Source of the DNA: Escherichia coli
GTDB taxonomy: Bacteria > Pseudomonadota > Gammaproteobacteria > Enterobacterales > Enterobacteriaceae
Direction: 5' to 3' (one strand)
NCBI RefSeq assembly: GCF_003334405.1
Contig: NZ_QOWM01000006.1
DNA length: 64,000 nt
Both the position numbers and the translations under genes were made by a program. Below the pieces are notes generated by a model that saw only the letters and a list, made by a program, of their open reading frames with translations, was not told the DNA's origin and did not search any database. This document shows, piece by piece, positions 21,334 through 42,052 of the stretch; position 1 is the stretch's first letter; each line of letters begins with the position of its first letter.

Positions 21334-21347
21334 GTTGACTCCTTCGT

Positions 21348-21530
21348 GCCGGATGCGCTTTGCTTATCCGGCCTACAAAATCGCAGCGTGTAGGCCTGAT
21401 AAGACGCGCCAGCGTCGCATCAGGCGTTGAATGCCGGATGCGCTTTGCTTATCCGGCCTACAAAATCGCAGCGTGTAGGCCAGATAAGACGCGTCAGCGT
21501 CGCATCAGGCGTTACATACCGGATGCGGCT
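21348..21530. repeat. BIME: two tandem ~85-bp units (each a pair of inverted REPs) plus a partial third REP
   Basis: Unit gccggatgcgctttgcttatccggcctacaaaatcgcagcgtgtaggcctgataagacgcgccagcgtcgcatcaggcgtt... repeated at 85-bp period. Confidence 0.75.
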
Positions 21531-21532
21531 AC

Positions 21533-35564: not shown

Positions 35565-38227
<2,663 letters not shown>

Positions 38228-38269
38228 GGTTTGGGTCCTTGTCTCTTTTAGAGCGCCTCGCTTCGGGCA

Positions 38270-38302
38270 TAAAAAAACCCGCGCAATGGCGCGGGTTTTT
38301 TG
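38270..38302 (-). terminator. leu operon attenuator (intrinsic terminator between leuL and leuA)
   Basis: Minus strand cccgcgccattgcgcggg hairpin followed by TTTTTTT. Confidence 0.7.
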
Positions 38303-38319
38303 TTTGACTGCGTGCTGGC

Positions 38320-38406
38320 TTAATGCTGGATGCCGCTCACTCGTCTACCGCGCAAAGAAGATGCGTTTAGTAGTAGTAGACCGATAAAGCGAACGATGTG
38401 AGTCAT
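38320..38406 (-). CDS. leuL: leu operon leader peptide
   Basis: 28-aa [28 protein letters not shown] with four consecutive Leu codons upstream of the attenuator. Confidence 0.9.
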
Positions 38407-38589
38407 TAAATCAGCTCCAGATGAATGCGATATGCTTTTAGAGTTACTGGATACAAAAACGGATGTCAACCCTGACGCAATAAAAACGTCCCGCCAGCGT
38501 GAGTTCTGCATCCGTAAAATTAGCTAATTGTGCTGCGGTGGTTAAAGTAAGCGATATTAATTTCTGCTTAACTACCGACGCTTTTCATC

Positions 38590-39060
38590 GGTTGACATAT
38601 TTCAGCATAAATTTTTGCATCTAATCAACGAGGAAAAAGGGGACAAAATGCACGCGTTGCAAAACCTATCCTGATGATTTGTATTGAATTATATGTTTTG
38701 CGATTTTTTTTGATATTGATTTGGTGAATATTATTGATCAATTAATGTTAAGAATTAATGCATTAAATATATAAATTAATTATTAAATAAGCACATTTAA
38801 TCCATTTTGTAGATGATTGAGTATTCGCGGTAGTTATGATTAGATTGTTTTCGCAACAAAAACATTATGGATTATTATGCTGTGGTAAATGACTCATTCC
38901 ACGGCAATGGATTCTGTTTTTATCAGAACCCGTATCTTTATGTTTTCCGAATTTTACTCATTTTGCTTTTTCTTATTTTATATGCATGATAAATCATATT
39001 CTTCAGGATTATTTCTCTGCATTCCAATAAGGGAAAGGGAGTTAAGTGTGACAGTGGAGT
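38590..39060. promoter_or_regulatory. extremely AT-rich leuL-leuO intergenic block (leuO promoter region; likely H-NS/curved-DNA silencing region)
   Basis: Long runs such as ttaatgttaagaattaatgcattaaatatataaattaattattaaataag; function from established knowledge of the leuO locus. Confidence 0.5.
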
Positions 39061-39065
39061 TAAGT

Positions 39066-40010
39066 ATGCCAGAGGTACAAACAGATCATCCAGAGACGGC
39101 GGAGTTAAGCAAACCACAGCTACGCATGGTCGATCTCAACTTATTAACCGTTTTCGATGCCGTGATGCAGGAGCAAAACATTACTCGTGCCGCTCATGTT
39201 CTGGGAATGTCGCAACCTGCGGTCAGTAACGCTGTTGCACGCCTGAAGGTGATGTTTAATGACGAGCTTTTTGTTCGTTATGGCCGTGGTATTCAACCGA
39301 CTGCTCGCGCATTTCAACTTTTTGGTTCAGTTCGTCAGGCATTGCAACTAGTACAAAATGAATTGCCTGGTTCAGGTTTTGAACCCGCGAGCAGTGAACG
39401 TGTATTTCATCTTTGTGTTTGCAGCCCGTTAGACAGCATTCTGACCTCGCAGATTTATAATCACATTGAGCAGATTGCGCCAAATATACATGTTATGTTC
39501 AAGTCTTCATTAAATCAGAACACTGAACATCAGCTGCGTTATCAGGAAACGGAGTTTGTGATTAGTTATGAAGACTTCCATCGTCCTGAATTTACCAGCG
39601 TACCATTATTTAAAGATGAAATGGTGCTGGTAGCCAGCAAAAATCATCCAACAATTAAGGGCCCGTTACTGAAACATGATGTTTATAACGAACAACATGC
39701 GGCGGTTTCGCTCGATCGTTTCGCGTCATTTAGTCAACCTTGGTATGACACGGTAGATAAGCAAGCCAGTATCGCGTATCAGGGCATGGCAATGATGAGC
39801 GTACTTAGCGTGGTGTCGCAAACGCATTTGGTCGCTATTGCGCCGCGTTGGCTGGCTGAAGAGTTCGCTGAATCCTTAGAATTACAGGTATTACCGCTGC
39901 CGTTAAAACAAAACAGCAGAACCTGTTATCTCTCCTGGCATGAAGCTGCCGGGCGCGATAAAGGCCATCAGTGGATGGAAGAGCAATTAGTCTCAATTTG
40001 CAAACGCTAA
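39066..40010 (+). CDS. leuO: LysR-family transcriptional regulator LeuO
   Basis: 314-aa product [61 protein letters not shown]... with LysR HTH; track ORF trimmed. Confidence 0.92.
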
Positions 40011-40327
40011 CTGATTGCAGAATAGGTCAGACATGAATGTCTGGTTTATTCTGCATTTTTTATTGAATGTAGAATTTTATTCTGAATGTGTGGGCTCTCT
40101 ATTTTAGGATTAATTAAAAAAATAGAGAAATTGCTGTAAGTTGTGGGATTCAGCCGATTTATTATCAATTTAATCCTCTGTAATGGAGGATTTTATCGTT
40201 TCTTTTCACCTTTCCTCCTGTTTATTCTTATTACCCCGTGTTTATGTCTCTGGCTGCCAATTGCTTAAGCAAGATCGGACGGTTAATGTGTTTTACACAT
40301 TTTTTCCGTCAAACAGTGAGGCAGGCC

Positions 40328-42052
40328 ATGGAGATGTTGTCTGGAGCCGAGATGGTCGTCCGATCGCTTATCGATCAGGGCGTTAAACAAGTATTCGGTT
40401 ATCCCGGAGGCGCAGTCCTTGATATTTATGATGCATTGCATACCGTGGGTGGTATTGATCATGTATTAGTTCGTCATGAGCAGGCGGCGGTGCATATGGC
40501 CGATGGCCTGGCGCGCGCGACCGGGGAAGTCGGCGTCGTGCTGGTAACGTCGGGTCCAGGGGCGACCAATGCGATTACTGGCATCGCCACCGCTTATATG
40601 GATTCCATTCCATTAGTTGTCCTTTCCGGGCAGGTAGCGACCTCGTTGATAGGTTACGATGCCTTTCAGGAGTGCGACATGGTGGGGATTTCGCGACCGG
40701 TGGTTAAACACAGTTTTCTGGTTAAGCAAACGGAAGACATTCCGCAGGTGCTGAAAAAGGCTTTCTGGCTGGCGGCAAGTGGTCGCCCAGGACCAGTAGT
40801 CGTTGATTTACCGAAAGATATTCTTAATCCGGCGAACAAATTACCCTATGTCTGGCCGGAGTCGGTCAGTATGCGTTCTTACAATCCCACTACTACCGGA
40901 CATAAAGGGCAAATTAAGCGTGCTCTGCAAACGCTGGTAGCGGCAAAAAAACCGGTTGTCTACGTAGGCGGTGGGGCAATCACGGCGGGCTGCCATCAGC
41001 AGTTGAAAGAAACGGTGGAGGCGTTGAATCTGCCCGTTGTTTGCTCATTGATGGGGCTGGGGGCGTTTCCGGCAACGCATCGTCAGGCACTGGGCATGCT
41101 GGGAATGCACGGTACCTACGAAGCCAATATGACGATGCATAACGCGGATGTGATTTTCGCCGTCGGGGTACGATTTGATGACCGAACGACGAACAATCTG
41201 GCAAAGTACTGCCCAAATGCCACTGTTCTGCATATCGATATTGATCCTACTTCCATTTCTAAAACCGTGACTGCGGATATCCCGATTGTGGGGGATGCTC
41301 GCCAGGTCCTCGAACAAATGCTTGAACTCTTGTCGCAAGAATCCGCCCATCAACCACTGGATGAGATCCGCGACTGGTGGCAGCAAATTGAACAGTGGCG
41401 CGCTCGTCAGTGCCTGAAATATGACACTCACAGTGAAAAGATTAAACCGCAGGCGGTGATCGAGACTCTTTGGCGGTTGACGAAGGGAGACGCTTACGTG
41501 ACGTCCGATGTCGGGCAGCACCAGATGTTTGCTGCACTTTATTATCCATTCGACAAACCGCGTCGCTGGATCAATTCCGGTGGCCTCGGCACGATGGGTT
41601 TTGGTTTACCTGCGGCACTGGGCGTCAAAATGGCGTTGCCAGAAGAAACCGTGGTTTGCGTCACTGGCGACGGCAGTATTCAGATGAACATCCAGGAACT
41701 GTCTACCGCGTTGCAATACGAGTTGCCCGTACTGGTGGTGAATCTCAATAACCGCTATCTGGGGATGGTGAAGCAGTGGCAGGACATGATCTATTCCGGC
41801 CGTCATTCACAATCTTATATGCAATCGCTACCCGATTTCGTCCGTCTGGCGGAAGCCTATGGGCATGTCGGGATCCAGATTTCTCATCCGCATGAGCTGG
41901 AAAGCAAACTTAGCGAGGCGCTGGAACAGGTGCGCAATAATCGCCTGGTGTTTGTTGATGTTACCGTCGATGGCAGCGAGCACGTCTACCCGATGCAGAT
42001 TCGCGGGGGCGGAATGGATGAAATGTGGTTAAGCAAAACGGAGAGAACCTGA
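40328..42052 (+). CDS. ilvI: acetolactate synthase III large subunit
   Basis: 574-aa TPP-enzyme [40 protein letters not shown]...; start trimmed. Confidence 0.95.

Follow-up and report, generated by a model that had tools for sequence, protein, structure and literature searches.

In the 64,000-nucleotide stretch of Escherichia coli DNA analysed here (the window), the leader of the leuL(ABCD) operon and the gene leuO diverge from a spacer of 659 bp, most of which is filled by an extremely AT-rich block of 471 bp (Table 1). The spacer is the longest among the window's 18 intergenic regions, and the gene map agrees with the first-pass annotation, which had placed the block between the leu promoter region and leuO. 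The leuA-leuO spacer taken with its flanks (839 bp) finds a match in 5,400 of the 5,426 complete E. coli genomes, with 100% identity to K-12-type strains. The window as a whole is 99.88-99.995% (about 99.9%) identical to E. coli K-12 MG1655, and beyond about position 21,347 window coordinates convert to MG1655 coordinates throughout by adding 45,302. That the window is MG1655 itself was ruled out by an 85-bp difference between araD and araA, small changes in yabP/yabQ and scattered SNPs, and gene coordinates were remapped. The araD/araA repeat region (window 21334-21532) is 85 bp shorter than in MG1655. Spacing also differs from MG1655 in the yabP/yabQ region (13071-14100), the third most AT-rich of the window (GC 0.38): yabP lies at 13241-13892 and yabQ at 13904-14062, and the two overlap in MG1655.

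Table 1. Genes and sequence features around the leuO upstream region, in window coordinates
Feature	Coordinates	Strand	Basis
leuA	36656-38227	-	gene map
leu operon leader/attenuator RNA	38271-38420	-	Rfam RF00512 Leu_leader, 145.8 bits, E = 3.5e-33; left boundary of spacer, outside block
leuL	38320-38406	-	RefSeq annotation
Putative leuLABCD promoter: perfect TTGACA -35 at 38464-38469, weak -10 about 17 bp downstream	38441-38469	-	sequence reading; fits leader 5' end at 38420
AT-rich block: very probable leuO regulatory region, H-NS/StpA silencing domain	38590-39060	.	GC, trough in 80 loci, PMC5025477, PMC3950696, PMC6797219, ChAP-seq flags
Candidate LeuO core site ATATTGATTTGGTGAATAT	38713-38731	.	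15/19 identical to K-12 cas promoter near-palindrome ATATTCATACTGTGAATAT
72-bp AT-richest core, GC 0.125; holds 29-nt run and AATTAAT cluster	38719-38790	.	minimum-GC 72-mer
Sigma-70-like match TTCGCA-17-TATTAT, candidate distal leuO promoter	38850-38878	+	consensus match only
Conserved box TCTTTATGTTTTCCGAATTTT, candidate BglJ-RcsB (RcsB-type) site	38933-38955	+	near-invariant, 20 genera; core wwTTCykA at 38943-38950
Promoter-proximal module CTTTTTCTTATTTTATATGCATGATAAATCATATT, putative P2 core promoter, -10 CATATT at 38995-39000	38966-39000	+	cross-genus identity
Tandem RBS and start units, GGAGTTAAGT-GTG and GGAGTTAAGT-ATG	39036-39068	+	exact 10-nt direct repeat, 18 nt apart
leuO, LysR-type regulator, H-NS antagonist controlled by block	39066-40010	+	100% identical to K-12 b0076
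yabR, 14 codons	40165-40209	-	gene map
ilvI	40328-42052	+	gene map

A perfect 9-bp inverted repeat (ATGTCAACC at 38463-38471 and GGTTGACAT at 38590-38598) carries a perfect TTGACA -35 hexamer in each arm, one directed toward leuL, where it belongs to the putative leu promoter, and the other toward leuO. The leuO-facing arm sits exactly at the left edge of the block and is followed by no well-spaced -10 element, a TCTAAT lying 22 bp away. As had been noted before, no ORF of at least 60 codons lies wholly in the block; the largest has 40 aa (38867-38989), and ORFs of 373 and 59 aa start inside and run out of it.

Base composition sets the block clearly apart from the rest of the window. Its GC content is 0.297, compared with 0.530 for the window, and in the distribution of all 471-bp windows (mean 0.530, sd 0.041) it stands at z = -5.7, the lowest value outside the block being 0.382. 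At scales of 100, 200, 300, 471 and 660 bp the GC minimum always falls inside 38354-39014, and at 100 bp it reaches 0.15 (38702-38801), which bears out the description of the block as the most AT-rich stretch of the window. Set beside the window's 17 other intergenic regions of 80 bp or more (GC 0.31-0.57), the leuL-leuO spacer as a whole (0.329) is second lowest after the 154-bp leuO/yabR spacer (0.312), the only one of them with comparable AT-richness. Second in AT-richness among the regions of the window comes the leuO-ilvI spacer (40011-40327), which holds the minus-strand yabR as well as the ilvIH promoter region; its 100-bp GC minimum is 0.25 (40045-40144), and strong bends are predicted at 40129 and 40305.

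The long A/T-only runs and the TTAAT/ATTAA motifs named in the first-pass annotation are indeed there. The longest A/T-only run of the 64 kb, 29 nt at 38762-38790 (runner-up 19 nt), is longer than dinucleotide shuffling of the block produces (mean 16, p = 0.002). TTAAT occurs four times and ATTAA five times, all within 38741-38801, though neither is over-represented for the composition (p = 0.32 and 0.07 against shuffles), and among the motifs tried only the heptamer AATTAAT, with three copies, was in excess (p = 0.004). By nearest-neighbour stability, computed with approximate parameters, the segments 38740-38789 and 38950-38999 rank lowest and second lowest among all 50-bp duplexes of the 64 kb; that both lie inside the block fits a sensitivity to supercoiling. 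The first overlaps the AT-richest 72-bp core, which runs from -347 to -275 relative to the leuO ATG, and the second takes in the promoter-proximal module. A 60-bp imperfect palindrome at 38731-38790 (73% complementary) was considered as evidence for a cruciform and rejected, since chance alone makes A/T-only DNA about 50% self-complementary.

Curved DNA had also been proposed for the block, and this part of the first-pass annotation was not demonstrated. We predicted curvature with a dinucleotide wedge model whose parameters, and hence absolute values, are approximate. On this approximate scale the mean is 8.5 deg per turn in the block against 5.8 in the window, and the other 17 intergenic regions have means of 4.7-10.6, enclosing the block's value. 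It could be argued that the block is recognised through a static intrinsic bend built of phased A-tracts, and not through AT-richness as such: mean predicted curvature over 471 bp reaches its maximum for the window around the block, which itself lies in the top 0.7%, and the periodicity of AA/TT at 10-11.5 bp marginally exceeds that of shuffles (p = 0.04). However, the mean is ordinary for intergenic DNA of the window and, in the same approximate model, marginal over dinucleotide shuffles (p = 0.044), the maximum is not above them (p = 0.23), and the strongest bend of the block (16.9 deg per turn at 38702) ranks only about 14th in the window. Recognition by a static bend is on this evidence unlikely. 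Of the two properties that the first-pass annotation wanted compared with other intergenic regions, GC content clearly sets the block apart and predicted curvature does not.

The reading of the block as an AT-rich target of H-NS accords with what has been published on leuO. As described in PMC5025477 and PMC3950696, leuO is silent in laboratory growth through repression by H-NS and StpA, and is served by a distal promoter, P1, and a proximal promoter, P2, of which P1 is fully active only in hns stpA mutants; both papers, citing Stratmann 2012, speak of derepression of E. coli P1/P2 in hns or hns stpA mutants. For Salmonella, PMC6463858 (summarising Chen et al. 2001, 2003, 2005) describes AT4, a transferable gene silencer of 72 bp and 22% GC in the leuO spacer, made up of AT7 (LeuO-binding, derepression) and AT8 (repression), and names the repression element as a target of H-NS binding in both Salmonella and E. 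coli; the 72-bp AT-rich silencer of the spacer is also summarised in PMC4264507 and PMC6797219. The gene map and this literature support the earlier suggestion that leuO is an H-NS-silenced LysR regulator controlled from the block. By its composition and position, the AT-richest core would probably be the E. coli counterpart of the AT4 silencer and its H-NS nucleation element.

Occupancy by H-NS had been named as a check, and published ChAP-seq data for three E. coli strains including K-12 (PMC4720273) bear on it, as gene-level flags and not as a coverage track over the spacer DNA: the criterion for a bound gene was an overlap between its coding region and a reproducible H-NS region in one or more of the strains. 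By the gene table of that study leuA, leuO and ilvI are bound, and leuB, leuC, leuD, ilvH and fruR are unbound; the 12 other intergenic regions of the window that appear in its intergenic table are all unbound. These flags match an H-NS filament that is centred on the block and reaches the 5' end of leuA on one side and, through leuO, the 5' end of ilvI on the other. Inside the leuO coding sequence there is a GC dip at 39416-39565 (codons ~117-167), seen over the 80 loci described below as a mean GC of 0.36-0.41 at +350 to +500; by analogy with bgl and proU, it might serve as a downstream H-NS contact.

We also scanned the window and the 80 loci for the high-affinity H-NS 10-mer TCGATAAATT (tCGATAAATT). 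It is not enriched in the block, where the best matches, 8/10 at 38734 and 38768, equal the shuffle expectation, nor across the loci, where a 9/10 match (TTGATAAATT) was found in 16 of 80 compared with 12% of shuffles. The 9/10 matches share one homologous position, with Salmonella and Citrobacter among the aligned genera. The 10-mer is not obligatory for H-NS targets, and H-NS targeting at this locus is best ascribed to general AT-richness.

Conservation of the region was followed in a one-genome-per-species scan that yielded 80 LeuO loci from about 25 genera of Enterobacteriaceae, with identity figures from 20 genera. In every locus in which leuA and leuO could both be located, they diverge across a distance of 747-941 bp, and the 470 bp upstream of leuO have a GC content of 0.28-0.42, compared with about 0.5 for each locus. 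When the loci are aligned on the leuO ATG, mean GC forms a trough between -550 and -50: it is lowest at -300 (0.235), rises again to a bump at -200 and falls to a second low at -150 to -100; the minimum-GC 72-mer has a median GC of 0.194 and a median start at -335. Mean identity of the block to E. coli across the 20 genera is only 0.52, and the A+T content of 20-bp bins is mostly 0.6-0.8. The conserved exception is a module at 38933-39000 that is near-invariant across about 20 genera. Low identity together with steady GC, spacer length and core position indicates that the composition, length and position of the AT-rich core are kept family-wide, along with the short proximal module, and that the sequence of the silencer is not, which is a modest addition to what is known of this locus. 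We infer that selection maintains base composition and low duplex stability, and not sequence, save in the promoter-proximal module and a few short islands.

The same comparison weighs against two readings in which the block would be AT-rich without regulatory design. The first holds that it is a remnant of horizontally acquired AT-rich DNA, on which H-NS acts only as a xenogeneic silencer. H-NS-bound core genes do overlap predicted horizontally transferred genes (PMC4720273), and the GC content of leuO (0.459) is below that of its neighbours, but the gene order, the spacer length and the AT trough recur in all 80 loci, so that any acquisition would predate the Enterobacteriaceae. The region moreover carries conserved promoter and activator islands, and ordinary-GC leuA-leuO spacers in most related genera were looked for and not found. 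We give this reading very little credence.

The second, that weakly constrained intergenic DNA has drifted toward AT by mutation bias and has a composition without a function, is also highly improbable. The low cross-genus identity would suit it, as would a slightly faster divergence of the block within E. coli (94.9% identity to UTI89, compared with 96-98% for the flanking genes). Against it, GC has been held within its narrow range over large evolutionary distances while the sequence changed, A and T are concentrated in a positioned core to a degree that shuffles do not reach, and the leuO/yabR spacer alone among the other 17 intergenic regions comes near the block in GC; published deletion and insertion experiments (PMC6463858, PMC6797219) also show silencing. 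Hardly credible at all is a hidden unannotated gene (small protein, sRNA or antisense transcript). In its favour, the block holds ORFs of 38-41 aa, and AT-rich H-NS-bound DNA is described in PMC9335307 as known for spurious promoters. Against it, an Rfam scan of 36000-41000 at E <= 1 gave no match in the block and, apart from the Leu leader, listed only microRNA hits of chance level (38521-38592). The stretch with the 40-aa ORF (38888-38927) shows the poorest conservation, with gaps in the cross-genus alignment and identities of 0.24-0.36, and the RefSeq annotations of K-12 and of four other E. coli strains leave the block empty.

The block is very probably, then, the known leuO regulatory region, a chromatin-type silencer combined with a promoter cassette, and several elements of the cassette can be tentatively placed. 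We infer the positions of the P2 promoter, the LeuO site, the BglJ-RcsB box and the nucleation core from the sequence. The highest cross-genus identity in the block, 0.84, falls at 38968-38987, within the promoter-proximal module. If the CATATT of this module is the -10 element of P2, transcription would start near 39006-39008 and the centre of the conserved upstream box would lie near -57. This agrees with the published distance, since P2 is described in PMC5025477 and PMC3950696 as activated by BglJ-RcsB from a site centred 57 bp upstream of the start, with LeuO as an antagonist. The box contains the BglJ-RcsB core motif wwTTCykA (PMC3950696), but this motif alone was rejected as a locator of sites; it is too degenerate and is not enriched in the window, with 27 occurrences found against 25.3 expected. 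A strict sigma-70 consensus scan of 38200-39200 returned a single match, the candidate distal promoter, where shuffles gave a mean of 4.3.

The candidate LeuO site was recognised by its likeness to ATATTCATACTGTGAATAT, the sole near-palindrome of 19 nt in the K-12 cas promoter region. Its agreement at 15 of 19 positions has a chance expectation of roughly 0.03-0.2, and a TGAAT half-site recurs at this position in many genera; LeuO site I at leuO is described in PMC6698644 as holding a palindrome almost identical to the cas core site. Placed here, the site would adjoin the upstream edge of the AT core and so mirror the layout of AT7 and AT8. At the same edge, a 31-nt segment at 38692-38722 resembles one at 38939-38969, at the conserved proximal box (TATGTTTTGCGATTTT and TATGTTTTCCGAATTTT, 77% identity, direct orientation). 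Because the distal copy is not conserved across genera, we treat this repeat as a possible chance match, and it may be either that or a second, E. coli-specific activator site.

Two further features of the promoter-proximal end concern the proteins that act on and arise from leuO. The RcsB-type box TTTTCCGAATTTT and the module at 38933-39000 are conserved over a range that may well be wider than that of BglJ, and another, more widely distributed activator may use the box. In addition, an in-frame GTG at 39048, six codons upstream of the annotated leuO ATG, is preceded by the first of the two tandem RBS units. Among 74 anchored loci, 68 have a GTG or ATG at this upstream position and 69 have a start codon at the annotated position, five (Kluyvera-like) having the upstream one only; LeuO may begin six codons before its annotated start, or both starts may be used. 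To go further and propose that the conserved box is the target of a family-wide leuO activator (e.g. RcsB with another partner) and, separately, that LeuO starts at the GTG is speculative, and we consider it rather doubtful. If true, the activator would provide the missing physiological cue that turns on leuO and, through it, CRISPR-Cas and other LeuO targets.

Based on the published work and the placements proposed above, we can present an outline of how the block would operate. H-NS, with its paralogue StpA, is described in the literature as binding AT-rich DNA, nucleating at an extremely AT-rich core and spreading along the DNA, which keeps leuO off in laboratory growth. In the window, nucleation would take place at the 72-bp core, and the spreading filament would cover the candidate distal promoter at ~38850-38878 and the candidate P2 at ~38966-39007. 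Several routes of relief are documented in the literature. LeuO, which stops the cis-spreading of H-NS (PMC4264507), binds beside the core and blocks the filament, and at high levels it represses its own gene, an autoregulation covered in PMC5025477 and PMC3950696. The BglJ-RcsB heterodimer acts from a site ~57 bp upstream of P2, and LrhA, which also targets PleuO (PMC12968389), activates leuO as well. Finally, when neighbouring genes are transcribed, the DNA under H-NS receives negative supercoils or is invaded by RNA polymerase. Upstream of Salmonella leuO, where an H-NS nucleation site has been defined, silencing is lifted by invading or approaching transcription (PMC6797219, PMC10981669), and ilvIH, leuO and leuABCD are linked through neighbour transcription in the 'promoter relay', which has been described as a coupling by local supercoiling (PMC4264507).

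Natural insertions of IS elements were found at the locus in three strains. In strain 23CRST017, an IS1 with a 9-bp target duplication (38752-38760) sits in the middle of the AT-richest core; in CUPF06, an IS10-like ISVsa5 lies 15-27 bp upstream of the leuO ATG (~39039-39051); and in FDAARGOS_943, an IS1A stands in place of 38568-40232, so that the block, leuO and yabR are lost. These insertions recall the activation of bgl by IS elements and the laboratory activation of leuO by Tn10.

The block is already known and explained in the literature, and our analysis makes no departure from published knowledge; the natural IS insertions, the conserved upstream start codon and the family-wide conserved candidate activator box are minor side observations. 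Its importance derives from leuO, which as a master H-NS antagonist controls CRISPR-Cas, virulence, acid-stress and efflux genes, and from the use of this AT-rich region as a textbook model of gene silencing, filament spreading, barrier formation and the supercoiling-coupled 'promoter relay'.

Among known systems, the leuO upstream region of Salmonella Typhimurium is the orthologous locus, with the same divergent arrangement and AT trough and with AT4 composed of AT7 as the LeuO site and AT8 as the H-NS nucleation site. The AT4 silencer and the ilvIH-leuO-leuABCD promoter relay were reportedly worked out there by Chen et al. (2001, 2003, 2005) and by Fang and Wu (1998). Relative to the ATG, the core occupies nearly the same place in the window (-347 to -275) as in S. 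enterica subsp. diarizonae (-338 to -266), whose core shares TATTGAT.AATTAATGTTAA with that of E. coli; AT4 of S. Typhimurium was compared by its description. The two differ in that the E. coli core has 12.5% GC and the published AT4 22%, and in that, at the conserved TTGAT.AATT position, E. coli agrees with the H-NS 10-mer in 8/10 letters and Salmonella in 9/10.

The E. coli bgl silencer is likewise AT-rich, silenced by H-NS and StpA and activated by BglJ-RcsB and LeuO, and it is activated by IS insertion in nature and in the laboratory (PMC3950696, PMC9678765), just as the leuO block carries natural IS1 and IS10-like insertions. However, bgl has upstream and downstream H-NS sites with looping, and CRP in addition, whereas leuO lies between two divergent or tandem amino-acid operons to which it is coupled through supercoiling. 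The proU (proV) operon, with its upstream and downstream regulatory elements, is like leuO a classic H-NS nucleation-and-spreading silencer in core-genome DNA, and studies of invading transcription have employed the two in parallel (PMC6797219, PMC10981669); in contrast to the E. coli leuO block, in which no such match was found, it has defined high-affinity sites of the TCGATAAATT type, and it is under osmolarity control. A further parallel, drawn from the description in PMC9728156, is leuO of Vibrio vulnificus and V. parahaemolyticus, upstream of which H-NS is described as covering >160 bp and overlapping activator sites, although the activators there are ToxR and a cFP signal.
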